A DNA stretch of 64,000 nt from a virus. The DNA lies in the IMG/VR virus record IMGVR_UViG_3300006040_000001, positions 1 through 64,000 of that record. One strand, given 5' to 3'. The notes under the pieces are model-generated. The model was not told the origin of the DNA and did no database searches. It worked only from the letters and a program-made list of their open reading frames with translations. Position 1 is the first letter of the stretch. The number at the start of each line of letters is the position of its first letter. The position numbers and the translations under genes were made by a program. Below, piece after piece: positions 4,300 to 39,168 of the stretch.

Positions 4300-4333
4300 A
4301 AAAGAGTAGTGGCATTGCCACTACTCTTTTTTT
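4300..4333 (+). terminator. strong intrinsic terminator
   Basis: AAAAGAGTAGTGGCA-T-TGCCACTACTCTTTTTTT. Confidence 0.85.
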
Positions 4334-7292: not shown

Positions 7293-7694
7293 ATGGTAAT
7301 GGCAGTGCCCAGTCTAGATACAGCCGGATGGGTAGAAGATGTTGGCGAGAAAGCAGAACGACTACTCGCTTATTTTCTAACCAGCGACTACTCGCAGTCT
7401 AATACACACGCGGGTTTAATCCAGTCTTTGCCGTATATTATCCAATCCTATATCGGCAACTTTCTTTTTTTGAGGGGTGAGATAGATAGAGCGCTTAATA
7501 CGTTGTACAGCGCATGGTTCGATGGATGTAGTATTACAGTGACCATTGACCCAGTCATCGTAGGGGGCGTAGAGTCTGAATCCGAATACTCTATTAAGTT
7601 AGATGTTACCGTAATGGAAGATGGTGTAAGGCACAGTCTAGGTAGATTGTTGTCGGTTAATAACAAAGTTATTAATCAAATTACCTCTCTCTGA
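7293..7694 (+). CDS. conserved phiKZ-like hypothetical protein
   Basis: 133 aa, GGAG RBS; VPSLDxxGW...FLTSDYSQS pattern; synteny. Confidence 0.7.
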   Translation: MVMAVPSLDTAGWVEDVGEKAERLLAYFLTSDYSQSNTHAGLIQSLPYIIQSYIGNFLFLRGEIDRALNTLYSAWFDGCSITVTIDPVIVGGVESESEYSIKLDVTVMEDGVRHSLGRLLSVNNKVINQITSL

Positions 7695-16231: not shown

Positions 16232-18295
16232 ATGACGTTATATCCAAACGACCTTAGCTGCGAAAACTTAGGCGTAGTTGCTATTAACCCTTTAGTCCGT
16301 TCGATCAGTGCTGCACGATTAGCCATGCTGTGCAGTCATATCGGTCAGGCATTACCCATGGAAGGCGCTACAGTAAAAAGATTAATTACTGGCATTGAGC
16401 GCGAGTATGCCAAAGATGACCATAACATACAGTTCCCGTGTAATGCAATCATTAAGAAAGTCGTACGTAAATACCCGCGCACTCCAGCGGACGAAAGGAT
16501 CAAAGACAATCCTATTACGTCGATTATCTACGAGAACGCTGATACAGATAATCAAGAAATAGGTGTACTGCATCTACCTAGTTACCATAACATGCATCAG
16601 CATTTTGGTTTCAACTACGTGTTGACTAGCGATGCCAGCAGATTATTCCCAGACGAGTACTTCGAAAAAGGTACAGTCATAGCCACCTCACCTATCGTAA
16701 CACCCGATGGTGATTACAAAATGGGAATTGAAGCCCAAGTTGCTTTTATGTCGATCCCTACCGTAATCGAGGACGGTATTGAGATCAGTGATGAATTTGC
16801 ACAACGCTGTAGAACCAAAGGTTATGGTACGCGTACGGTGAGTTGGGGTAAAAACGCGATCCCTGTGAATCTCTACGGCGATCCATCTAAGCCAGACGAG
16901 TATAAACCGTTCCCTGACATTGGCGAGTATGTACACGATAATGGATTGTTGTTCGCTACCCGTAGTTACGAAGATATGGTTACTATACCGTTGTTATCGC
17001 GCAGCGCGTTACGGAACGTAGATTTCTTCGATACACCCGTACAAGCTATACCGGGTGCTAAGATCATTGATGTGATAGTCTATAAAGGCAACCGTGATAA
17101 AACCTACTTACCCCAAGGTATGGATGAGCAGTGCCGATATTATTATCGTCGGTCTATTAGTTACTATCAGAATATTCTGGAAGAGTATTATAAGCTACGT
17201 GGTCAGCGTGGCGTTAACTTAGTCACAAGTCCAGCTTTTGGGAACCTAGTCGTCAGAGCCGAGGCTATTACCAAAGCACATGAAAAACCTTACCTAACAC
17301 CATCCTACGGACGCCGTCCAATCGATGAGTGGTTAGTAGACATTGTGTTCGAATATGATATTGTCCCTACTATTGGATTTAAGTTCACCGGGCTAAACGG
17401 CGATAAAGGAATCGTCTGCGGCGTCAGACCAAAGGCCGATATGCCTGTCGATGCTACCGGTAACGTAGCGGACTATATTACGGATTTTGATTCCTCTGTA
17501 AAGCGGATGAACCCAGGCCGTACATACGAGCAGTACATTAATTCATCAGGTCGTGCATTAGCACTATCTATCGAATACGATCTACGCGCCACCCCCAACA
17601 CAGCTGCTAAAATTAATCAGCTGTGGGATCACTTGATGGGGTTCTATAAGTTACTAGCCCCTGCGATGTACGATATTATATCGAAGCGCACATCGACATT
17701 CGAACGCCAGCTACATTTAGAATGTGTTGCCCGTGATGGCATGTATCTCTATCTACCTCCTGACAACCCAGTTAAATATATCGAGGTTATTAACCAATTA
17801 CGTTATCGCTACCCAGCGCCATTAGGCCCTATCCGGTATCGTGGTAACTCAGGTCGATTAGTCACTACTAAGAACAACGTGCTGATCGGTGGTATGTACA
17901 TCTTACTATTAGAGAAAATAGGTAACTCATGGCAAGCCGTATCTAGTGCTAAGCTACAGCACTTCGGTATCCCAGCTAAATTAACTAACGCTGATAAATA
18001 CGCAGCCCCCGGACGACATAACCCGGTACGTATCTTCGGCGAATCTGAAGTCCGTCTAGTATCTGCAATCTGCGGTGGTGATATTGTTGCAGACATCCTA
18101 GATCAAGCCAATAATCCAGTAGCCCATCGGAGCATCACTGAAACCATCTTACGTAGCGATACCGCGACTAATATAGAGCGCATTATTGATCGTAATAAAA
18201 TACCCGCTGGTAACGGGCGAATCATTACACTCGTACGGCACGTATTAGAATGTGCTGGCATCCGCTTCACACGGGGTAAACGAAATGCAGTATAA
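16232..18295 (+). CDS. rpoB: non-virion RNA polymerase beta subunit, C-terminal part (phiKZ gp71-73-like), uninterrupted
   Basis: IEDGIEIS, GFKFTGLNGDKGIV, KRMNPG, YILLLEK, RIFGESEV. Confidence 0.92.
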   Translation: MTLYPNDLSCENLGVVAINPLVRSISAARLAMLCSHIGQALPMEGATVKRLITGIEREYAKDDHNIQFPCNAIIKKVVRKYPRTPADERIKDNPITSIIYENADTDNQEIGVLHLPSYHNMHQHFGFNYVLTSDASRLFPDEYFEKGTVIATSPIVTPDGDYKMGIEAQVAFMSIPTVIEDGIEISDEFAQRCRTKGYGTRTVSWGKNAIPVNLYGDPSKPDEYKPFPDIGEYVHDNGLLFATRSYEDMVTIPLLSRSALRNVDFFDTPVQAIPGAKIIDVIVYKGNRDKTYLPQGMDEQCRYYYRRSISYYQNILEEYYKLRGQRGVNLVTSPAFGNLVVRAEAITKAHEKPYLTPSYGRRPIDEWLVDIVFEYDIVPTIGFKFTGLNGDKGIVCGVRPKADMPVDATGNVADYITDFDSSVKRMNPGRTYEQYINSSGRALALSIEYDLRATPNTAAKINQLWDHLMGFYKLLAPAMYDIISKRTSTFERQLHLECVARDGMYLYLPPDNPVKYIEVINQLRYRYPAPLGPIRYRGNSGRLVTTKNNVLIGGMYILLLEKIGNSWQAVSSAKLQHFGIPAKLTNADKYAAPGRHNPVRIFGESEVRLVSAICGGDIVADILDQANNPVAHRSITETILRSDTATNIERIIDRNKIPAGNGRIITLVRHVLECAGIRFTRGKRNAV

Positions 18296-20225
18296 CGCAC
18301 GTGAATTATTAACATGGTCTGTAGATGATATCTGGAATCTTCCTGACCTAGAAAACATTACGGTAGTTATGGATGATGGTATTATTACTACAGATGTGCG
18401 GTTCTTAATATTCTCTACGTACATCTGGGACGTACATCGGGCTTATCCGTTAACACCGCTGTTAAAAAGACATTTCTTACAGGGTCGTTATACAGGTAAC
18501 TCACACATCGAGTTGTTGTCCCACGCAGTATTTGACTGCTGGGATGAGTATAAGCTAAAGCAACAACCGATTGATATGGAGTCGCTGTGCCGTATCCCGT
18601 TCATGGTGTTTAATAATATCTTCAACGACTTCACGTACAAACTAGAGGAAGATGTTGCCTCAGCATGTGCGTTAGATTTCGTAGACGTTATGATGCACCC
18701 TGATATTAAATCAGCCAACGATCATTTACAGGCATTAGAACACGTCAGTAAATATGATATTGATATCTGTAACAACGCCATTAGTAGCGTGTTGCTAACA
18801 GCGCCTGAGTTAGCTTCTAACGCCATCTCTAAAGCTATCCGTGCAGGTACCGTACGGATGAACCAAGTATTACAGTGCGTAGGCCCGCGTGGGTTTGTTA
18901 CAGATATTGACTCCTATATATTCCATGAGCCCATCCGCGTCGGTTATGCAGAAGGCTTTAGTAAACTCGAAGATGCAATGAAGGTCTCTCGTGAAGCTAG
19001 CCAGTCGTTGTTGTTTACTAAAGGTCCGATGCAGGACACTGAGTATTTTAACCGGTGCGAGCAACTAGTAGCGGCTTCTATACATCATATCCATCCGAGC
19101 GATTGCGGGTCACGTGACTATCTCCCCGCTACGATAAGTTCACGTCGTCTATTACTAGACATGGCTGGCGTCTATTACTTCGACGAGACCACTAACCAAG
19201 AACACGCTATCACACAGCACTCTACGCATCTATTAGGTAAGACAATTAAGATCCGTAGTGTGTTAACGTGTAAGCACAGTAATCCATATGCCGTATGTGC
19301 CCGATGTTTTGGTGAATTATCGTTATCAGTACCCGAAGGTACTAACATCGGCTATATCTCAGCAGCCCAACTACAAGGTCCGGTAGGGCAGTTGATTCTA
19401 TCCAATAAACATTACACCGGCAGTGCAGGCGTAGATGAGCTCTGCGTATCAGAAGCTAACGAACACTATATCACGACAGGTGCAGACGAAAACTGTATCT
19501 ATATTAACCCTAAGATGAAGGGTAGACTTTTATCGATTGCGTTAGACGAAAAAGAAATTCCTAACCTCACTGATATCCTAGTCGTAGAAGATGTTCGTAT
19601 GGTCAGTCCATTCCGTATTAGCGAGGTCAGCGTAGCCGACTTTACTTACATGGAAGGTGATGCCGAGTTAGGCGTAGTAGTTGATCTAATTAACGGTGCG
19701 CGTGTAGGATCGCTGTCACGTGAGTTCTTAGCCTACGTCAAAGAGATCGGATGGAGTATAGGCAATCGTAACGAGTACATTATTGACATGACCGATTGGG
19801 ATATGTCTTTACCGTTTATACAGATGCCACTAAAACATTTCTCTACGGTAGACTTTATGAAATCTATCGAGAGCTTTATCAAAGGAGGTAGTACTAAAGG
19901 TGCTAAATCTATTACCAACTACGATACAGCATTCGCTGCATTAATAGCGCTCCATGATTTAGTTAGCCAGCGCTTATCCGTTAATATTGCGTACCTGCAA
20001 ATTGTGATATTAGCGACCTTAGTGAGATCACGGGTAGAACGAGACTACAGATTACCCGTAGACCGTGCTAACGCGGTACCAGCGCGCTACAACCAAATTA
20101 TGTCACTACATTCACTCACCGCGGGTTATGCTTATGAGGGTCAACAAGATCTGATATTCTCCGCAGAGTCATTTTTGGTAAAAGTGCGCCCACGTCACCC
20201 GTTAGACTATATGGTATTAAGGTAG
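18285..20225 (+). CDS. rpoC: non-virion RNA polymerase beta' subunit, C-terminal part (phiKZ gp74-like)
   Basis: QCVGPRG, TEYFNR, DCGS, IRSVLTC...VCARCFG, QLILSNKH; ATG 18285 preferred. Confidence 0.9.
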   Translation: MQYNARELLTWSVDDIWNLPDLENITVVMDDGIITTDVRFLIFSTYIWDVHRAYPLTPLLKRHFLQGRYTGNSHIELLSHAVFDCWDEYKLKQQPIDMESLCRIPFMVFNNIFNDFTYKLEEDVASACALDFVDVMMHPDIKSANDHLQALEHVSKYDIDICNNAISSVLLTAPELASNAISKAIRAGTVRMNQVLQCVGPRGFVTDIDSYIFHEPIRVGYAEGFSKLEDAMKVSREASQSLLFTKGPMQDTEYFNRCEQLVAASIHHIHPSDCGSRDYLPATISSRRLLLDMAGVYYFDETTNQEHAITQHSTHLLGKTIKIRSVLTCKHSNPYAVCARCFGELSLSVPEGTNIGYISAAQLQGPVGQLILSNKHYTGSAGVDELCVSEANEHYITTGADENCIYINPKMKGRLLSIALDEKEIPNLTDILVVEDVRMVSPFRISEVSVADFTYMEGDAELGVVVDLINGARVGSLSREFLAYVKEIGWSIGNRNEYIIDMTDWDMSLPFIQMPLKHFSTVDFMKSIESFIKGGSTKGAKSITNYDTAFAALIALHDLVSQRLSVNIAYLQIVILATLVRSRVERDYRLPVDRANAVPARYNQIMSLHSLTAGYAYEGQQDLIFSAESFLVKVRPRHPLDYMVLR

Positions 20226-20229
20226 CCTT

Positions 20230-21765
20230 ATGTATACATTCACGATGGATGTATACTCCCATCACTTCGTCCTCACGGGTTTTGCCCGTGAAGGACAGCG
20301 GCTGATTACGGAGTATGCCCGAGAGTTTATTGAGTACCAGTATGTGAAAGGCTGGGCTGGTGAGGTAACCCGCGAACAAGTACGTATATTCGCAGCATCT
20401 ACGCCTAAACGCGAATACTATCGGTTCCATCGTAATGCATTAGACCACTTCATGCTATTCATAAAAGCCAGAGGGTATAATGAATCTACTATAAACCGAA
20501 TAGATCATCCGATGTATGAACCGGTAAGGGTAGAGATGCCTTTACTACCCCACGCCAAAGCCAGAGACTACCAGATCCCACTAGTAGAACATTTATGTAA
20601 GCCCTTGAAATCAAAGGTATTAATGCTCCAGACAGGTCAAGGAAAAACCTTCTGTGCACTAGACGCCATGTCTAAATTAGGCTATAGAACCGCTATCGTT
20701 ATCCGCCCAATGTATATCCAGCGATGGGTAGATGCATTAACGAAACCACGTGAGAAGATGTTGGATATAGATGAATCCGACATTCTAGTGGTACAGGGTA
20801 CTAAACAACTACGCGGATTAATAGCCCACGCCAAAGCTGGGCTACCGCTACCCAAAATCATTATTATCAGTAATCGTACACTGCAACTAATGTACGATCA
20901 CTATAGCCGTACGTGTTTAGATACGTTCTTCTACGGATGTGCCCCACACGAGTTATACGAGCTACTCGGTGTCGGTATTCGATTAATCGATGAAGTACAC
21001 CAAGATTTTCATTTTAATTTCCTACAGGACTTATACTCACACGTACCTACTACGATAAACCTCAGTGCTACCCTAGAATCAGATGCATCCTTTACAAACC
21101 GCATGTATCAATGGATGTTTCCCGCCGAGACTCGTGGTAAAACCGATAACTACATTAAGTATATTGCTGTAAAGGCATTAACCTATACGCTAAAAGAACC
21201 AGAGCGTGTTAAATACTTAAGACGTGGTAGAGGATCGTATTCGCATGTAGACTTTGAAAAATCCATTATGCGTTATAAAGACATGATGGTGTCTTACGGC
21301 AATATGATTGATGTGGCCTTAAAGGAATATTACATCCCTAAGAAAGAACCCGGTCAGAAAGCAATCGTGTTTGCTGCTACAGTCGATATGTGCGGAGTCG
21401 TAGCCGGACAACTTCAGTTAAAATACCCTGACTTAAATGTAAATAAATACACAGCCGAAGATGACTATGATAAACTCATGGAGTCCGATATCTGCGTATC
21501 CACAATCGGTAGCGCCGGTACAGCAGTAGACATTCCTGATTTGAAATACTGTTTGTCTACCACCGCTATCGGTAAAACAGAAACCAACTTACAGGTCATG
21601 GGTAGACTACGTCAGTCTAAACGTTGGCCTGAGATGACACCGATATTCTCTTACTTCGTATGCCTAGACGTACCCCAGCAGGTAAAATACCATTTGTCTA
21701 AAAAGGAAAAGTTCAAAGGCAAAGTACTATCACACCAAACCGTAGACCTAGGTCTTAAACTGTAG
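20230..21765 (+). CDS. superfamily 2 DNA helicase (phiKZ gp75/UvsW-like)
   Basis: TGQGKT, IDEVH, LSAT and QVMGRLR motifs. Confidence 0.9.
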   Translation: MYTFTMDVYSHHFVLTGFAREGQRLITEYAREFIEYQYVKGWAGEVTREQVRIFAASTPKREYYRFHRNALDHFMLFIKARGYNESTINRIDHPMYEPVRVEMPLLPHAKARDYQIPLVEHLCKPLKSKVLMLQTGQGKTFCALDAMSKLGYRTAIVIRPMYIQRWVDALTKPREKMLDIDESDILVVQGTKQLRGLIAHAKAGLPLPKIIIISNRTLQLMYDHYSRTCLDTFFYGCAPHELYELLGVGIRLIDEVHQDFHFNFLQDLYSHVPTTINLSATLESDASFTNRMYQWMFPAETRGKTDNYIKYIAVKALTYTLKEPERVKYLRRGRGSYSHVDFEKSIMRYKDMMVSYGNMIDVALKEYYIPKKEPGQKAIVFAATVDMCGVVAGQLQLKYPDLNVNKYTAEDDYDKLMESDICVSTIGSAGTAVDIPDLKYCLSTTAIGKTETNLQVMGRLRQSKRWPEMTPIFSYFVCLDVPQQVKYHLSKKEKFKGKVLSHQTVDLGLKL

Positions 21766-23822: not shown

Positions 23823-23885
23823 TTAGTCATCATCGGGATCTAGGTTGTCATCCGGATCCCATAGTTCATCATTCATCGGATCCAT
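23823..23885 (-). CDS. possible 20-aa acidic micropeptide
   Basis: MDPMNDELWDPDDNLDPDDD*, GGTGA upstream, overlaps the macrodomain stop. Confidence 0.35.
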   Translation of the reverse strand: MDPMNDELWDPDDNLDPDDD

Positions 23886-24330
23886 CTGGTTCACCGTAAA
23901 TTTCGATAGTTAAATGAGTCAAGGGTTTTAAATACTTAAGCATTAATGCACGTACATCAACCCAGTTAAGGCCACCGCACCCGCATCCTAGTTTAGGGAA
24001 CGCGAAACTACCTGGCTTATTTTTACGATACTGTCTAGCAAACCGCTGTAGCTCAACCTCTAAATCCACTAGGTTAGAGCGATCACTCCAATGATATTTA
24101 GTTACAAACAACATCAGATATTTATCGTTGATGAAATCTACAGTAGCAATACGATCCTCATCCGCCTGACGTTTACTACACCAGCGTCTATACGCCAGAT
24201 AAGCACTATGGTCTAACTGCTTAGCCTTTAAAGCCATGCCAGCACCCATAATACCTACTACGTTAACCGGACAGACGATGACCGCGCAGCTCGTATTAAA
24301 TATATTCCCGTCTTTATATATAATGGTCAT
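23869..24330 (-). CDS. macrodomain (ADP-ribose processing, DarG/Poa1p-like) protein
   Basis: GNIF, CPVNVVGIMGAGMA, FVTKYHW, FPKLGCGCGGLNW. Confidence 0.9.
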   Translation of the reverse strand: MTIIYKDGNIFNTSCAVIVCPVNVVGIMGAGMALKAKQLDHSAYLAYRRWCSKRQADEDRIATVDFINDKYLMLFVTKYHWSDRSNLVDLEVELQRFARQYRKNKPGSFAFPKLGCGCGGLNWVDVRALMLKYLKPLTHLTIEIYGEPDGSDE

Positions 24331-24349: not shown

Positions 24350-24790
24350 TTACGTAGGCGGTGTGGGGTGTGTACTCGCCGCTAGCTCACCAAGCTCCTC
24401 TACCATATACTCAATTACTGCTCTAGGTAAATCCATAAACTCAAGTAACGTAAGTTTATAATGATCATACACTTTAAACAACCGATATTGATGCATGCGT
24501 CGATACATAGGACCGAGGGTGGGTAGATCTTCTTTTGGGTTCATAGCAACTAAGGCTAGTGGTGAGCATTCAGGATTTAAGGTCTCGTCAAGTATGGCAA
24601 TACCGTAGTCCTCTAAATACGATTCCCGTAAATAGATTTTAGCATCCATGCCAGTAAGATTACGTCCATTTACTACGAGTTTGTTAATAATTTCCATTTG
24701 GTCTACCGTACTACCGAACATGTGGTTTAAGACATGTCCGTTAATAGGATCAGGATCAATTAACGAGCTTACTCGCTCTTTAGTAACCAT
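24350..24790 (-). CDS. conserved hypothetical protein; possible frameshift extension (GT-like) of the upstream gene
   Basis: 146 aa; LTLLEFMDLP motif; no SD before the ATG; in the -1 frame of the upstream ORF. Confidence 0.7.
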   Translation of the reverse strand: MVTKERVSSLIDPDPINGHVLNHMFGSTVDQMEIINKLVVNGRNLTGMDAKIYLRESYLEDYGIAILDETLNPECSPLALVAMNPKEDLPTLGPMYRRMHQYRLFKVYDHYKLTLLEFMDLPRAVIEYMVEELGELAASTHPTPPT

Positions 24791-26313
24791 AGCTTGCGGG
24801 CCACGAGGGTAAAAAAAAGTTGGTTTACCTCCAGTGGGATTAAGTGCGGATGTGTCGAGTCTGGGTTCACTAACGGCTTCTTACAGTTAGGGCACGCAAA
24901 CGCCGGCAGCGCAATCAATGAAATAACCGTATCATCAATGTACTTAGCAACGGCATCTAATAACTGCCCTACGGCGTACATATTAGCAGATAAGATATCT
25001 AACGCTTTTTCAACATCAGCACGTTCTTCCATGTAGGATTCGTCATCGTTAACAATCCGTTTAACAAACGGACTATACTGGCGTAGTGTGGTTAACAAAG
25101 CCTGTGACTTTAAGAACTCTTCTTTTTTCTTAGCGTTCAGGAACTTATCACCTAATGCGCGTTCAGTCGTATTAACGATACTAGAGATCCATTCAATCCC
25201 AGCATTGATGTGCTCACCTACGGTAGGTACTTTTAATACAACCTTAGTAACGATAGTATCATCGTATTCATCCATACGGATATCGAACGTACGTCCATCA
25301 GCAATAATCCCTTCTTGCTGATACGCCATGATTTCTTCGATACTGTATAGCTTATCAGGATTAGCCATGTGTCTAATTTGTGTAGGCGTTAACTGTGATG
25401 AATCCACCCACGCCAGCTTAGTTAGGTTCACGTGCTCTTTAGTTAAATGTGTACAGGCCGTAGGGTCTACGAAGCACGGTTGTGAGATCGTGTAGCCATT
25501 AGTGTAGATCGCACAGGCTAACCCATGCATGGTAACTGGAAAATCATAGCTACGCATTACATGTCGTAGCATATTAGGTTCAAAGTCTTTAATGTTAGCA
25601 CTTACTGTGTGCTCGACTAAGAAATCCATGAGTGAGCTGTTCATGTAAACATTATGATTAGAAAACACCAGCCCATTGGATTCACGACCTAGCTTGATTT
25701 TCTGGCTAGAGATATACTGATCTAGGATATTTAAGCTACTGTCAGCTGGCGTACGCACTGTGACCCAAATACCACTACCCCATAACGGGAACGTTAACAG
25801 CCCGCCCATTTTTACAGTAGACTGGAACTTAGCTACAGCAGCTTCCCCAGTCATTAACAATCCAGGGTTCTGTACTACGCGGGGTCTACGCATGCCGAGT
25901 TTACGGCCTTCGTACTCGATGTTTTGTTGCCATTTGGACCCTGGTCGTTCAAAACTCGCTGTGAATGCGCCATCCTGAATAGCGACATTGGCAGCTTGTA
26001 TAAACGCATGACCCCATTCACCTTGTAGTGTACCTTCGTTAATGCTATTATACGGGTGGCGTTGAGCCACTTGCGTAATCTGCGGCGTAGACATTCGATA
26101 TACGTATAACGGATATTCGTCTTTCCGTTTAGCGGCGCTAATAGGGCTATCGGTCATTGTTACATGGAGGTTAGCTTCGGGTACTGTAGCTTCTGGTTCC
26201 GAGGCTGGTGGAGCCGCACTAGTGACGGTATCACTGGTAGGTGCGGTAGCTGCGGCGGGCGCTAATACAGTATCGCTATTAGGTGTTAGCGCATCGGGTG
26301 TATGTTCATTCAT
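24769..26313 (-). CDS. conserved phiKZ-like protein (gp77-like position), candidate tail/baseplate assembly chaperone
   Basis: 514 aa; disordered N-terminus, two Cys pairs (CFVDPTAC, CPNC), ends LFF-TLV at a T8 run. Confidence 0.75.
   Translation of the reverse strand: MNEHTPDALTPNSDTVLAPAAATAPTSDTVTSAAPPASEPEATVPEANLHVTMTDSPISAAKRKDEYPLYVYRMSTPQITQVAQRHPYNSINEGTLQGEWGHAFIQAANVAIQDGAFTASFERPGSKWQQNIEYEGRKLGMRRPRVVQNPGLLMTGEAAVAKFQSTVKMGGLLTFPLWGSGIWVTVRTPADSSLNILDQYISSQKIKLGRESNGLVFSNHNVYMNSSLMDFLVEHTVSANIKDFEPNMLRHVMRSYDFPVTMHGLACAIYTNGYTISQPCFVDPTACTHLTKEHVNLTKLAWVDSSQLTPTQIRHMANPDKLYSIEEIMAYQQEGIIADGRTFDIRMDEYDDTIVTKVVLKVPTVGEHINAGIEWISSIVNTTERALGDKFLNAKKKEEFLKSQALLTTLRQYSPFVKRIVNDDESYMEERADVEKALDILSANMYAVGQLLDAVAKYIDDTVISLIALPAFACPNCKKPLVNPDSTHPHLIPLEVNQLFFTLVARKLWLLKSE
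24811..24832 (-). promoter_or_regulatory. candidate -1 programmed ribosomal frameshift site
   Basis: Minus strand GGAGGT-AAACCAAC-TTTTTTTT; the -1 frame is open into the downstream ORF. Confidence 0.55.
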
Positions 26314-26315
26314 GA

Positions 26316-26807
26316 TTATTCCAAGTCCAATAAAAGACCGCTGATGTCAGCGGCAGTGCCATGTACAATAACGGTGTTAAAAGAATCCATCCATTGACGG
26401 TATTCTTCACTAACTGCTACGCCATGCATGAGCTCGTCCTGCATGTTGTCTTCAGTTACTACCCGACCAACATACATATTACGGACATCCTCTAACCGCG
26501 CCGTAAATGATTGGATATCATTACTAAATGCGCGAGCCATGCCTGTAAATGTATCTATTAAACCTTTAGCTGTTAGCTTAGTACGCGTGTCTTCTGACCG
26601 TATAGCTTCTACGACTGGCACCACTACACTAAACAACTGCTGACATTCTTTATGGAACGCATCTAAGTCGCCCCATTTGAATTGTGGTTTAGCCGCTTTA
26701 CGTTGTTGCGCAGCAGCTCTGTCACGTGCCCTGTTTTCAGCAGTAATCTCTTCTGCTGTTTTCTTACGCATACCAGTCGGGGTTTGTCCGGGGGTATTCT
26801 TTTTCAT
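26316..26807 (-). CDS. hypothetical helical protein
   Basis: 163 aa, AGGA RBS, first gene of the minus-strand unit. Confidence 0.7.
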   Translation of the reverse strand: MKKNTPGQTPTGMRKKTAEEITAENRARDRAAAQQRKAAKPQFKWGDLDAFHKECQQLFSVVVPVVEAIRSEDTRTKLTAKGLIDTFTGMARAFSNDIQSFTARLEDVRNMYVGRVVTEDNMQDELMHGVAVSEEYRQWMDSFNTVIVHGTAADISGLLLDLE

Positions 26808-26913: not shown

Positions 26914-27747
26914 ATGTTTGATAAGCTAGAAAACTGCCTTAATAAATGGGTAGTACCACCTCGTCGTGAAGCCATTATGTCAGCCTTTACCGTACTAGAT
27001 GCGCATGGATCACATCGTGCCTGGACAGAGGTTAGTCAGTATTTAGAATACGCTGAAGGTTTAGAGCCCGTGTCGCAGATACTAGATACGATAGATAACT
27101 GCTTACACATTGATTTAGATACAATGCTCCAAGCCCATACCGTCATGATGGATGCATCTATCGTACTAAAGACCGAGGTATTAGAAGGACTATTGGTAAT
27201 GCAGTCCATCGAGGACACGCATACACTACTAGCTATTATCGACAGTGCCGATAACGAAATGGACGGGTTCATGGAGTTACTAGGATTCGTTTTAAATAAG
27301 CCGTGGGAGCATTTCTCTGAAGGAATACTCTCGGTATCCACCGCATTACTGGATAAGCTTACAGAGCAGCTAGAGTCCGTAGAGGCTACAGTAGAGTCGG
27401 CACCGTACGAGGTAGCTGACAACAAAGTCGCTAAACTAATTCCGTTTATGGAACGGTATGCCAGTAGTCTATTAGTAACCGCAGTAACAGATGATGGTCG
27501 CGTATTAGGCACCCCGCTAGATATTTTACGCAACGCCTATAAAGTACCATTGTTGTTATTGGAGCAGACAGATGCTAAGAGAGCCGCTATCGAGTTAGTA
27601 GGGTTTACGTTACTGAGCGATACCCCGTTAGCCGATGTCTATACTGTAGCCAAGCAACAGGCAGCGCTTATCTATAGTGATATTAATTTCTTAACCGCTA
27701 TAGACATTGCTATAGAACCTATATTGAGAGAGGTGATCCATGGATAA
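26914..27747 (+). CDS. conserved protein upstream of the vRNAP subunit (gp79-like)
   Basis: 277 aa, acidic and helical, overlaps the next start. Confidence 0.7.
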   Translation: MFDKLENCLNKWVVPPRREAIMSAFTVLDAHGSHRAWTEVSQYLEYAEGLEPVSQILDTIDNCLHIDLDTMLQAHTVMMDASIVLKTEVLEGLLVMQSIEDTHTLLAIIDSADNEMDGFMELLGFVLNKPWEHFSEGILSVSTALLDKLTEQLESVEATVESAPYEVADNKVAKLIPFMERYASSLLVTAVTDDGRVLGTPLDILRNAYKVPLLLLEQTDAKRAAIELVGFTLLSDTPLADVYTVAKQQAALIYSDINFLTAIDIAIEPILREVIHG

Positions 27748-29038
27748 ACGGCAGTATCTAATCGAAGCGTTGCAGGCGGGCGCCTATAAGCGCAAAGACT
27801 GGATCTTATCGGTATTCAGTGTGGTACGTAATACGACGACTATTGGCGCCGCATATCCGTATGCGTTAGTACACCAGCCTAATGATCCATTAGTCTATAC
27901 CATCGATCTTAACGATCCGGATGCGCTAACGGTTATCGATGGCGCTACCAAAGATCAACCGTTGTTTAGTCTGAAAGATAGAATTACCCTCCAGCCACAC
28001 GACATACCGAATGTCAAAGAGACTATAGAAACCAACCTCGGCAATCTGTTACTTAACTGTATGCTGTTCGTCTATCCGTTCGGCGATAAAATCCCGTTTA
28101 TGACCGGTAAACTAAAAGCGGGTAAGATAGAAGCCTTAGTAGCCTCGATGCTAACCCCGGATCCAGTAACAGGCGCTAATCGTGACCCTGCTAAAATATA
28201 CGTAGATGAGTACTTAAAATATTGTGAGGCTGTCTCAGCCGCAGCCGGCCTTACACAGCTATGCGTACCATCTGCCAGTCCTAAGACAATGTCTGTAAGC
28301 CCAGAGGTATTAAAACGGCGTGATGAGTTGCTGTTAGAATATGGTAGTCAGTTACATGACCCAGCTATCGTAGCTCGTATAGAGACCGAATTGACACAGA
28401 TGGATCGTGAGTGGTTTAAAGGCGATCCGGGCGAAGGGTTCTTACTCAGTGCCAAATCTGTGGATGTATCCCGTAAGCGCGCCTTCATCATGGTCGGTGC
28501 GGAAACAGGGTTCGGCGATACCAAAGATGGCGTAGACCCTATTAAGAAGTCTTTATCAGAAGGCTGGGACTTAGAACAATTACCAGCGATGGTTAACAAC
28601 CTACGGTCTGGTAGTTATAACCGGGGACATGAAACAGCATTAGGCGGTGAGTCAGTTAAGTATTTCTATCGTATATTCCAGAATACACGCGTCGTGGAAG
28701 ATGACTGCGGTTCTACCGAAGGGTTACCGTGGGTAGTGACGACAGATAACTTTACTACGTTTGACGGCCTATGGACTACGGACGGCGTAGCCTTAGACGT
28801 ATCCAGTAGCAAAGCACTCATTGGTAAATCTATTAAGCTACGGAGCCCAATGTTATGTAGAACGGCAGCGCCTTCGTTCTGTGCTAAATGCGTAGGTAAA
28901 TTATTGGCCGCTAACCCGACTGGTCTACACATCGCTGCTTCCGACGTTGGTAGTATCTTTATGTCGACGTTCATGGGCGCTATGCACGGCAAAGCGTTAC
29001 GTACCGCTAAATTTGATTATCGAACAGCAATAACCTAA
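27740..29038 (+). CDS. rpoC: virion RNA polymerase beta' subunit fragment (phiKZ gp80-like)
   Basis: RSGSYNRGHETALGG (bridge helix), EDDCGS, LRSPMLC...FCAKCVG, FMGAMHG. Confidence 0.9.
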   Translation: MDKRQYLIEALQAGAYKRKDWILSVFSVVRNTTTIGAAYPYALVHQPNDPLVYTIDLNDPDALTVIDGATKDQPLFSLKDRITLQPHDIPNVKETIETNLGNLLLNCMLFVYPFGDKIPFMTGKLKAGKIEALVASMLTPDPVTGANRDPAKIYVDEYLKYCEAVSAAAGLTQLCVPSASPKTMSVSPEVLKRRDELLLEYGSQLHDPAIVARIETELTQMDREWFKGDPGEGFLLSAKSVDVSRKRAFIMVGAETGFGDTKDGVDPIKKSLSEGWDLEQLPAMVNNLRSGSYNRGHETALGGESVKYFYRIFQNTRVVEDDCGSTEGLPWVVTTDNFTTFDGLWTTDGVALDVSSSKALIGKSIKLRSPMLCRTAAPSFCAKCVGKLLAANPTGLHIAASDVGSIFMSTFMGAMHGKALRTAKFDYRTAIT

Positions 29039-36582: not shown

Positions 36583-39168
36583 ATGGATACATTAGCCACG
36601 CAGTGGGCTGGCATCACTAACGATATAGAGCGCTTAGATCGTCTAAGCGCGTTAGCCACCAGCATTAGACAGCACGGCATGTCTCATGACACAATGGTGG
36701 CTCTAGAGTCCGTAGAGCCTGGTATGTTGTTACGGGATATACCCTCTACTGCCTTTACTATCGACCCTAGTGATGTACGCCAGTCTATCAGTTTAGAACG
36801 TATCGGGTATTTAAAAGCAGGTATCATAGGCGGGTTACTCGCCGCGCTGATCGCTTTTTTAGTTAAGTTGTTTCGAGGACGTACTGCAAACAAACATCAC
36901 GCCCGCGATATGCAAAATGCTAAAGAAGAAGCGACTGAAGCCGACGATCAGTTTAGCGAAGTCCGTGAAGCCGCTGCTGAGGAAACCCAAAACACCTCCA
37001 CTACTTTAACCCGCGATGAGTTAAAAAAGCTCTATAACCATCTTATTAAGATTGGCTTAGAAGAAGCAGACGCGCGTAAATGGACAGCTGATACCCACGC
37101 CGTCCGCGATTATTTTTTTCATTCAAAAACCTATCGTGACGACATCCTGTCATACGCGATGGATAAATGCTGTTTCCCAATATTGCTAGCCGACGATTAC
37201 TTACAGCTACAAGACGAGTTACGTAACGTGGTAACTGCTATATTGCCTGAAGCACCAAACCGTATAGCCTATCTAGGGCAGCTTGCTGCCTATGCCCGTA
37301 TGCTGTATGATACACAAAACATCTTCATCCGCAACCACGAATTCGATCCAGTACCGACGTACACCGCAGACATTGGCATGATGCGGCTATACACCAGTAC
37401 CACGGGTGATACCACGCGCGGCGTATCGCCTATCGTAGATGACTTTAATGGCAAAGTAGCCCAGTTATTTACGCCAATGAAAGCACCCGGTAAACAGTTA
37501 CTATCCCCGTTATTGGTAGACGAGCGATATACGACTGTATTGAAAGATACCGTAACAGCTGCGATTGAATACGAGGATTACTACATCAGTAAAGGCGTAA
37601 AAGGTATTGAAGGACTCAGTATATACGTAGAAGAACTTGAACGTGCTATGAAAGATAAACACAGCATTGATTCACAGCGCGAGAAAGTATTCATCCTTTA
37701 TGATATTGTAAAGGATGAACTGCGTGCCACCGCTCGGATTGCTTCTACGATGATCATGATCCGCGAACGCAGTGAACGTATCGTATCTGTATTACAGAAT
37801 GCTACTACCACGCTGACCACTGCTCGTGAGTTAATTGAGTCACTACGTAAACAACTGAAGATCAGTAAGTACTACTCTAACGAATCACTCGAACCCGTAG
37901 CTGAGACGAATCCTATCGCCGCCCTAGAAATGGATGATGAAGTTATCGTAGCGTTACTAGGCCAGGCCGATGCATTAGAGTCTATCCATAACCAGATCAC
38001 TTATGCAGGTACCATTAGTCGTAGAGATGCTGCCACTATCAATACAATTGGACGCTGTGAGGCACTACGTGTAACAGACTATACGCAGCATGCTTCTAAA
38101 GTGGGTTTACAGCCCGCACTAGAGTCAATGTCTGATCTTATCCAGAAAGCTGCCCGTGCAATTATTGAGTTTATAAGCAATACGCTTAAACGACTTATCA
38201 GTTGGCTACGCGGTACGTCTAATGAGGACAACCTATCCACGCGTAAAGCAAACCTAGCTAAGACTTTTAAAACGTTTGTAGCGAGGCAGGAGTTATCATT
38301 ACGGTTAGTAGATCAGGCGATGGCTGCCGGTGGTCTCAAACCAATTAGTGAAGCCGTAGATATCTACCATACCAAAGGTAAATTATCACCACAGTTTCCA
38401 ACGGTACGTGGGGCGCATCCTAATGCCGTGCAGGATATGTTATTCAAAGCGTTGGCATCGGAACCCAATAATCGAATCAACGCACTCACGATGGATATTA
38501 TCGATGGTAAGTTCCATACTCGTACAGCTATCGAGTTAACGACAGCTGAACTAGCTATTGCTATCCCTCGACTAACGGCTAGTATCCAGCAGTTAGCAGC
38601 TAGTCCTGATGCTCCCTTAGACCACACTGGCGACATAGCCAGACTCAAAACCTACGCTGAGAAGATGTACACCGCTATTAAAGATAGACCCACGGGTTTA
38701 CCTACAGGCGGCTTTAAAGCAGCTGTGGGGGAGGTGGTCGATATACATACTCGACTGTCGGCTGCCCGTGCTGCTACCCCGGAGATCGTGCTAGATGCAT
38801 CGTGGCTTACTAAAGTAAATATGGATAGTTACTTTAGTTTACTAACGGAGCATAAAGCTGAGCTACATTTATTGGAGCAGGCTGATAAAGCATTGGCAGC
38901 GCTTCGTAAGAACACTAATAACACACCTGAGTTTAAGGCCGGGTTAGAAGAACTTACGGACTACCTAGCCGTGGTGACTAAGTTGACAGTCATGATGCGT
39001 AATATACGCAGTGCCGCACGTGTGTTCCTAAAAGTAAGCGAGCGCATTACCGGTACGTTAATAGGAATCTTTATCATAGCTCACCAGAACGTATGTAAAG
39101 GAACGGCACCCGCTATCTTACGTAAGGAAGCTAGAGTATTGGAACGTGCTGCTAACACACTACTTTAA
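36583..39168 (+). CDS. internal head/ejection protein, two tandem modules
   Basis: 861 aa with two propeptide-like regions rich in ALE/SLE sites. Confidence 0.75.
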   Translation: MDTLATQWAGITNDIERLDRLSALATSIRQHGMSHDTMVALESVEPGMLLRDIPSTAFTIDPSDVRQSISLERIGYLKAGIIGGLLAALIAFLVKLFRGRTANKHHARDMQNAKEEATEADDQFSEVREAAAEETQNTSTTLTRDELKKLYNHLIKIGLEEADARKWTADTHAVRDYFFHSKTYRDDILSYAMDKCCFPILLADDYLQLQDELRNVVTAILPEAPNRIAYLGQLAAYARMLYDTQNIFIRNHEFDPVPTYTADIGMMRLYTSTTGDTTRGVSPIVDDFNGKVAQLFTPMKAPGKQLLSPLLVDERYTTVLKDTVTAAIEYEDYYISKGVKGIEGLSIYVEELERAMKDKHSIDSQREKVFILYDIVKDELRATARIASTMIMIRERSERIVSVLQNATTTLTTARELIESLRKQLKISKYYSNESLEPVAETNPIAALEMDDEVIVALLGQADALESIHNQITYAGTISRRDAATINTIGRCEALRVTDYTQHASKVGLQPALESMSDLIQKAARAIIEFISNTLKRLISWLRGTSNEDNLSTRKANLAKTFKTFVARQELSLRLVDQAMAAGGLKPISEAVDIYHTKGKLSPQFPTVRGAHPNAVQDMLFKALASEPNNRINALTMDIIDGKFHTRTAIELTTAELAIAIPRLTASIQQLAASPDAPLDHTGDIARLKTYAEKMYTAIKDRPTGLPTGGFKAAVGEVVDIHTRLSAARAATPEIVLDASWLTKVNMDSYFSLLTEHKAELHLLEQADKALAALRKNTNNTPEFKAGLEELTDYLAVVTKLTVMMRNIRSAARVFLKVSERITGTLIGIFIIAHQNVCKGTAPAILRKEARVLERAANTLL

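Follow-up and report, generated by a model that had tools for sequence, protein, structure and literature searches.

A candidate programmed −1 ribosomal frameshift near the 3′ end of core gene cg18 of phiKZ-like jumbo phages, a probable distant relative of T4 gp26/gp51

Introduction

A conserved −1 frameshift in the tail genes of long-tailed phages was reportedly described by Levin et al. in 1993 (cited in PMC8570332) and by Xu, Hendrix and Duda in 2004, and the chaperone pairs gpG/gpGT of lambda and gpE/gpE+E′ of P2 are among the closest described counterparts of the system presented here. Stimulatory elements are common at −1 frameshift sites yet not obligatory, and lambda G/GT has none. The principle of a −1 frameshift in a chaperone gene is already known; what would be new here is the apparently unrelated protein family and the phage group. 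The DNA analyzed, referred to as the window, comprises positions 1–64,000 of the virus record IMGVR_UViG_3300006040_000001, and the locus of interest lies at 24350–26313 on its minus strand, where an open reading frame (ORF) of 514 amino acids (aa), ORF1, is followed by an overlapping ORF of 146 aa, ORF2. An earlier note on this DNA had read the two as a tail assembly chaperone (TAC) pair of the G/GT type, fused by a −1 slip. The ORF1 family is Chimalliviridae core gene cg18, which is entered as “hypothetical protein” (Prichard et al. 2023, PMC10299810, supplement). Our comparison of related loci points, with a probability of roughly 0.8, to a programmed −1 ribosomal frameshift near the 3′ end of cg18, the product of which would be a distant, large relative of T4 gp26 and gp51.

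Results

Two Open Frames Overlap at a Phased T-Run

ORF2 overlaps ORF1 by 22 nucleotides (nt) and lies in its −1 frame (26313 − 24790 = 1523 = 2 mod 3). The features of the locus are the following.

26313..24769, minus strand: ORF1, the 0-frame product, 514 aa
24790..24350, minus strand: ORF2 as annotated, 146 aa, the downstream part of the −1 extension
24817–24811, minus strand: slippery heptamer T TTT TTT in 0-frame phase (X XXY YYZ), part of a T8 run at 24818–24811
24832–24828, minus strand: internal GGAGG, exactly 10 nt 5′ of the heptamer
24769..24810, minus strand: 0-frame tail past the slip site, 13 residues, TLVARKLWLLKSE + stop
24350..24811, minus strand: −1-frame extension, 153 aa from TAC at 24811–24809, with its stop at 24352–24350
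24350..26313, minus strand: predicted frameshift product, ORF1 residues 1–501 + 153 aa = 654 aa
24788..24790, minus strand: ATG of annotated ORF2, with no AGGAG-like sequence upstream and not conserved

Close to the 3′ end of ORF1, the codons of the 0 frame read CTG GAG GTA AAC CAA CTT TTT TTT ACC, and the T TTT TTT run stands 13 codons ahead of the ORF1 stop. The heptamer is placed inside a stretch where the 0 and −1 frames are both open, the −1 frame being open from ~69 nt upstream of the T-run down to the stop at 24352–24350. After a −1 slip the reading would be ..NQLFF followed by YPRGPQAMVTKERV.., and the predicted fusion junction in the window is ..NQLFF/YPRGPQAMVTK... The trans-frame junction is predicted to read ..NQLFFYPRGPQAMVTK in the window and ..LSTFFYFGGLEVK in phiKZ. 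Thus, rereading the sequence bore out what had been reported of this site: the heptamer, the GGAGG 10 nt upstream, the open −1 frame, the 654-aa fusion, and an ORF2 ATG that lacks a Shine–Dalgarno (SD) sequence. T7 runs as such are not unusual in the window, where 5 matches compare with 9.6 expected from shuffles, so the case rests on conservation across relatives; the three other T7 runs of the window lie on the plus strand at 4327–4333, 7465–7471, and 37113–37119. No near-identical DNA was found in phage records.

The Site and Its Frame Relation Are Kept Among Diverged Orthologs

Homologs of ORF1 were detected by tblastn in 216 phage records, all of them from phiKZ-like jumbo phages and all at <33% identity, the hosts of which include Pseudomonas, Erwinia, Salmonella, Serratia, Ralstonia, Vibrio, Klebsiella, Burkholderia, Xanthomonas, Bacillus, and others. 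The orthologs include phiKZ gp077, 201phi2-1 gp136, PhiPA3 gp074, and RAY gp267. With 80 further loci taken from IMG/VR, we assembled 83 complete loci (the window, 4 GenBank phages, and 78 IMG/VR contigs), which span 22–38% identity in ORF1 and 30–59% in locus GC; removal of near-duplicates at 85% identity left 71 nonredundant loci.

All 83 complete loci have the T-run on one and the same pair of Phe codons, a 0-frame stop 8–19 codons past the run, and a −1 frame that stays open for 150–184 aa beyond it; the +1 frame is mostly open for <20 aa (range 1–102). ORF2 is in the −1 frame in 55/55 loci in which tblastn detects it, the window included. The same arrangement is seen in phiKZ, Goslar, 201phi2-1, and RSL2, where the site is T TTT TTT, in SPN3US, BONAISHI, and CR5, where it is T TTT TTC, and in Bacillus phage AgentSmith, where it is T TTT TTA. 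Among the nonredundant loci, T TTT TTY stands at the slip site in 57/71, G TTT TTY in 10/71, and a T5 run alone in 4/71. The recoding proposed in the earlier note thus withstands the refuting outcome named there: no ortholog examined lacks the T-run at this codon or has the downstream ORF in a frame other than −1.

The bases of the site are constrained beyond what the protein needs. The P-site Phe codon is TTT in 67/67 loci, compared with 23.7 expected from each gene’s own usage; indeed, in 44 of the 71 loci TTT accounts for <40% of the remaining Phe codons, and the 143 kb of sequence in these genes contains just 5 further runs of T≥6. At −4, the wobble position that supplies the X of X XXY YYZ, 57/71 loci have T whichever amino acid is encoded, while base −5 is unconstrained, base +3, directly after the run, is A in 57/71, and T9 is rare at the slip site. 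The T at −4, the free −5, and the A after the run show that selection acts on exactly the phased heptamer, and the base pattern fits such a heptamer rather than a rule by which a longer run is better. Diverged orthologs therefore keep both the site and the frame relation, and the nucleotides are under more selection than coding alone requires.

No further element of the signal is shared among these loci. GGAG or GAGG occurs 4–20 nt upstream in just 4/71 loci, which equals background (4%), so that the GGAGG of the window is private to it and lies outside the conserved signal; the earlier view of this SD-like element as part of the signal does not hold, although in the window it may stimulate the slip locally. 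An upstream SD was accordingly rejected as a conserved stimulator, being absent in 67/71 loci. A conserved downstream RNA structure was rejected as well, since the minimum free energy of the 50 nt downstream is no better than that of control windows in the same genes (p = 0.32) and the window’s own downstream fold is unremarkable (z = −0.2). Lacking a conserved SD-like or RNA-structure stimulator, the signal would be the U-run by itself. By analogy with lambda G/GT, slip efficiency is probably low and fixed.

Both Predicted Products Look Functional

The 0-frame tail, 8–19 codons long in all loci, keeps codon periodicity to about +32 nt and has a conserved T at the second codon positions +7, +10, +22, and +31, a spacing like that of an amphipathic helix, FFTLLxQ(K/R)(I/V)..I. 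Residues 496–513 of ORF1 form a helix in the AlphaFold2 (AF2) model. As modeled, the 0-frame tail completes a conserved amphipathic helix at the C terminus, and this helix end is unique to the short form.

The extension consists of a Pro-rich linker and then a conserved helical domain (phrog_12109). It aligns over 67 sequences, with the motifs HV..FG, YGI, PL.LVA.H..ED, and EFL.LP, and the helical domain folds in AF2 at a predicted local distance difference test score (pLDDT) of 81. Foldseek and the VIA wide search gave no convincing PDB structure match for the extension (best Z 5.1), and an ESM Atlas search with it returned nothing usable. A search of longer proteins carrying the extension revealed no natural in-frame fusion of it to ORF1, and among 1750 representative clusters, of which 1359 matched at E ≤ 1e-30, the best 150 all end at the 0-frame stop. 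From alignment and modeling, both products look constrained and functional.

Probable Distant Resemblance of ORF1 to the T4 Baseplate Hub Chaperones

ORF1 matches phrog_4585 (E 3e-101), and ORF1 and ORF2 hit only PHROG families of unknown function, with nothing in Pfam or NCBIfam; a PDB sequence search likewise gave nothing for ORF1 or the extension. The AF2 model of ORF1 is confident (pLDDT 86, predicted template modeling score 0.84). Compared with solved structures by Foldseek against the PDB and by the VIA wide search, it matched nothing convincingly, the best Z being 6.2 on single helices. A Foldseek search of the model against BFVD, however, returned the jumbo-phage orthologs first and then more than 10 hub proteins of ~250 aa, with E about 9e-6 to 2e-3, probability 1.0, and a template modeling score (target) of about 0.5. 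These carry names such as baseplate hub assembly protein (T4-like), baseplate hub subunit, and baseplate hub assembly chaperone. A fold shared with PF12322 family members was thus found between predicted models.

T4 gp26 and gp51 are both members of PF12322 (T4_baseplate), and gp26 bears the NCBI name “baseplate hub assembly chaperone.” The PF12322 profile matches 2 of 67 ORF1 relatives, with a best E of 5e-5; in the relative L045, residues 380–502 align to profile positions 113–200 of 219 at 16.3 bits, which does not reach the gathering score of 24.5 bits. In addition, hhalign sets the ORF1 C terminus, IALP-x-CPNC...LFFTLV, against the very end of gp26, LAVP-x-CPEC...FFELL(stop), placing window residues 467–504 on gp26 residues 181–208 at a probability of just 11–30%. 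A C-terminal CxxC zinc-knuckle-like motif followed by FFxLL would, on this alignment, be common to ORF1 and gp26, and the T4 gp26 C terminus, ..CPECGKTHAHVIRGLKEFFELL(stop), ends three residues past the FF that corresponds to the slip site. The earlier note's hint at T4 gp26/gp51 therefore proved apt, with a BFVD Foldseek probability of 1.0, subthreshold PF12322 matches, and ..CPxC..FFELL(stop) in gp26 at the equivalent position. Weak sequence signals together with the predicted structure suggest that ORF1 is a distant gp26/gp51-like protein, a view to which, as part of the whole explanation only, we give the same good odds as to the frameshift; a tail- or hub-chaperone function is what these signals would imply.

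T4 encodes gp26 and gp51 in separate genes.

L085:5803–6429: T4 gene 26
L085:6480–7229: T4 gene 51

The gp51 protein runs on past the equivalent ..DVFKLL into a tail of ~45 aa, PF28602 in a newer Pfam release, and the two T4 genes mirror the short and long forms predicted here from one gene. An hhalign comparison of the 153-aa extension with the gp51 tail was not significant (probability 0.2%). A matching slip from T4 gene 26 into gene 25 was considered and rejected, because T4 has TTC TTT at this point and a TGA closes its −1 frame. In Acinetobacter phage vB_AbaM_Berthold (H151, MN709128.1 119089–119730), the gp26 homolog is labeled “tape measure protein assembly chaperone,” which, as annotation only, shows that at least one annotator equates gp26 with the lambda G/GT role.

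Within ORF1, two tandem gp26/gp51-like modules are suggested at residues ~166–336 (25300–25820) and ~337–514 (24772–25300), on the basis of the AF2 secondary-structure order and of an hhalign match that is not significant (6.5%). The pattern in this match is a beta-hairpin followed by (K/R)xP(S/T)xxE, with PLWHSGIWxTLKxPSE in one module against VxLKVPTxxEH in the other, and each putative module has a Cys pair, C279/C286 and C473/C476.

Current Annotation of the Pair

In phiKZ, the −1 ORF after gp077 is 171 aa long and lies at L086:2727–3242 (AF399011.1 71442–71957 reverse). It is annotated from its first ATG only, as the 80-aa PHIKZ076.4 (gp076.4), which leaves ~87 conserved codons upstream unannotated; AgentSmith, CR5, and Goslar have similarly truncated or shifted ORF2 calls. 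No joined coding sequence or ribosomal slippage is annotated in the GenBank records inspected for the family. Nor is the frameshift described in the jumbo-phage literature searched in full text, including the core-genome paper, an Annual Review, and the Goslar preprint, and proteomic or RNA data on the trans-frame product did not turn up there either; subscription journals fell mostly outside this search, and an older description is possible. Literature matches that shared a gp number, namely Goslar gp77, PhiPA3 gp136, and PCH45 gp77, were other proteins.

Neighboring Genes and Virion Membership

The pair is surrounded by RNA polymerase beta-subunit genes, a helicase gene, a phosphatase-like gene, and genes of unknown function. 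phiKZ, PhiPA3, 201phi2-1, and Goslar share the gene order gp079, gp078, gp077, extension. The neighbors in the window are the following.

26316–26807, minus strand: 163-aa gene directly upstream, the stop of which abuts the ORF1 ATG
23869–24330, minus strand: phosphatase PHROG phrog_335 (E 7e-24), directly downstream of the extension
16232–20225 and 27740–29038, plus strand: three ORFs matching the multisubunit RNA polymerase beta PHROGs phrog_3295, 3015, and 2962
20230–21765: helicase

The 163-aa gene, which has no PHROG match, is the syntenic ortholog of phiKZ gp078, PhiPA3 gp075, and 201phi2-1 gp137; it always precedes the recoded gene and may be a functional partner. The Goslar gene at the phrog_335 position is annotated with a Macro (Poa1p-like) domain. 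The three split polymerase-type ORFs together with the helicase fit a phiKZ-like genome with split RNA polymerase genes.

Virion data from two relatives bear on the pair. A cryo-electron microscopy preprint on the Goslar virion (10.64898/2026.04.21.720040) attributes the entire density of the hub and inner baseplate to other proteins; gp81/gp82 go unmentioned in it and are not among the 28 modeled virion proteins. In the 201phi2-1 record, the neighbor gp138 is flagged by virion mass spectrometry and gp136/gp135 are not flagged. These data fit, indirectly, a nonstructural assembly factor.

Discussion

How the Two Forms Would Arise

In the scheme that we favor, most ribosomes would stay in the 0 frame through U UUU UUU, add the 13-residue helix end, and stop, which would give the 514-aa form. 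A minority would slip back by one base as tRNA-Phe re-pairs with the U-run, a tandem event on U UUU UUY and one confined to the P site at shorter runs. The slip would swap the helix end for Tyr-Pro and the Pro-rich linker, after which the slipped ribosomes would read the helical domain of ~120 aa and yield the 654-aa long form. Both forms would be nonvirion factors in baseplate-hub or tail-initiation assembly; the shared body may bind the substrate and the extra domain of the long form may tether a second partner. This two-form logic would resemble that of lambda G/GT and of T4 gp26 (short) and gp51 (longer).

Other Ways to Express the Extension

The same 654-aa fusion would result if the phage or host RNA polymerase stuttered on the T-run and added one U to some of the mRNAs. 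The homopolymer, mostly 7–9 T, has no ribosome-specific stimulator, and both the protein outcome and all of the conservation data fit polymerase slippage equally well. Late genes of phiKZ-like phages are, moreover, transcribed by an unusual phage multisubunit RNA polymerase. However, 14 of the 71 loci have runs of only 5–6 T, which are short for polymerase stuttering, and selection ends exactly at the heptamer, with T at −4, no constraint at −5, A at +3, and few T9 runs, as tandem tRNA slippage predicts. The short runs and the heptamer-exact phasing make the ribosome the likelier site of the slip, and we regard slippage during transcription as unlikely, though a real contender. A different account would have no slip at all, ORF2 being expressed as a gene of its own, from ATG 24790 or by termination–reinitiation, and the T-run being a mere conserved Phe-Phe pair. 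GenBank records do annotate two genes, −1-frame overlaps are frequent among coupled genes, and the window has an in-frame ATG 26 nt past the start of the FF codon pair. Against this, an alignment of 67 sequences shows no conserved Met at the position of that ATG, and in many loci the conserved, open −1 ORF contains no ATG, GTG, or TTG for 200–413 nt past the run (the first start codon is at +413 in L024, +308 in L055, +305 in L046, +261 in phiKZ, and 260 nt in L084), so that the conserved domain cannot start independently there. Annotated ORF2 starts also vary widely and arbitrarily from record to record, gp076.4 of phiKZ being limited to the final 80 aa; no stop interrupts the −1 frame between run and conserved domain in any of the 83 loci; and a Phe-Phe pair alone cannot account for TTT in 67/67 loci in GC-rich genomes, nor for the T at the preceding wobble position. 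Two separately started genes are hence quite improbable, and ATG 24790, being neither conserved nor preceded by an SD, is probably not the main route of expression. Homopolymer runs are, finally, classic sites of sequencing and mutational indels, and an ordinary 654-aa gene could have been split by a sequencing error or by a recent frameshift mutation. The chance of this is negligible: the same split, identical in frame and codon, recurs in >80 independently sequenced genomes and contigs and in >200 GenBank phages of many genera, no in-frame version is found among the best 150 representative clusters, and the 0-frame tail is itself under coding constraint. The breadth of conservation excludes an artifact or a pseudogene.

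Several points weigh against a programmed ribosomal frameshift in a gp26/gp51-like gene. The argument for the fusion is comparative throughout, and ribosomal and transcriptional slippage look alike at the level of sequence. The G TTT TTY sites (10 loci) and the T5-only sites (4 loci) are poor sites for tandem slippage, the lack of a conserved stimulator means that efficiency could be very low, and the in-frame ATG 24790 leaves room for some independent initiation in the window. As for the link to T4, the fold match pairs predicted with predicted models, there being no solved structure of the family to compare; the window protein has no Pfam match at E ≤ 1; the C-terminal hhalign alignment has the low probability given above; plain hmmsearch comparisons of the ORF1 and T4-type gp26 families were not significant; and the absence of tail genes around the pair means that context gives no tail signal.

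What the Arrangement Would Mean

A programmed ribosomal frameshift in cg18 would be the first in the Chimalliviridae core genome. It would mean reannotating a core gene in >200 sequenced jumbo phages, among them several models for phage therapy and cell biology, and phiKZ gp077 and “gp076.4” would become one recoded gene. It would also provide a functional lead, baseplate-hub assembly, for “hypothetical” cg18 and for a domain that has no structural match in the PDB. We consider it somewhat better than an even bet that all Chimalliviridae phages, and probably also the large myoviruses of the wider gp26/gp51 superfamily, rely on unannotated recoding to make a short and a long hub-assembly chaperone, and that the helical domain of the long form, lacking any PDB or Pfam match, couples hub assembly to another step, e.g., loading of the tube or tape measure. 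In that case the two-form chaperone principle of lambda G/GT would have arisen independently in T4-type tails, and its logic of a short and a long chaperone in a fixed ratio would extend to an unrelated family in contractile tails of the T4 type. A stimulator-free U-run site that is kept from Pseudomonas to Bacillus phages would, in addition, offer a simple system in which to distinguish slippage by the ribosome from slippage by the polymerase.

Comparison with Known Frameshift and Chaperone Systems

The tau/gamma products of E. coli dnaX (A AAA AAG) share with cg18 a homopolymeric heptamer and two products from one gene, and the GGAGG 10 nt upstream in the window has dnaX-like spacing. In dnaX, however, the shift leads into an early stop and the shifted form is the shorter one, whereas here the shift extends the protein; dnaX also relies on two strong stimulators, an upstream SD and a downstream hairpin, neither of which is conserved in the cg18 loci.

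T4 gp26 (208 aa) and gp51 (249 aa), a chaperone/catalyst of baseplate hub assembly, resemble ORF1 in predicted structure and through the subthreshold PF12322 matches of its relatives, and gp26 also in the C-terminal pattern IAxP-CPxC...FFxLL. As paralogs that differ by a C-terminal tail, they parallel the short and long forms. ORF1 differs from both in being more than twice as long and below the Pfam threshold, and T4 differs from cg18 in having two genes, no slip site (TTC TTT), and a closed −1 frame.

The G/GT comparison holds as an analogy, with two forms produced by a −1 slip that are probably assembly factors, and is not supported as family membership. With its 514 aa, ORF1 is roughly fourfold longer than the ~140-aa gpG and belongs to an apparently unrelated family, no Pfam, PHROG, or PDB-fold link to TACs having been found for the pair; in the VIA wide search nothing exceeded Z 6.2, and in the PDB Foldseek search the HK97 TAC 2ob9 ranked 36th (E 2.5). 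The gene position differs as well, since the pair has RNA polymerase and helicase neighbors and does not lie between a tube gene and a tape-measure gene, and in cg18 the slip replaces a conserved terminal helix, not a few residues. The likenesses to lambda gpG/gpGT and P2 gpE/gpE+E′ concern the arrangement. In each case a −1 slip would occur on a simple run near the 3′ end of the upstream ORF, a T-run in P2 as in cg18, with no strong stimulator needed, and would give a short form and a C-terminally extended minor form in a ratio that is presumably fixed and low. The cg18 products, like those of lambda and P2, may be absent from the virion, and the arrangement is kept despite sequence divergence.

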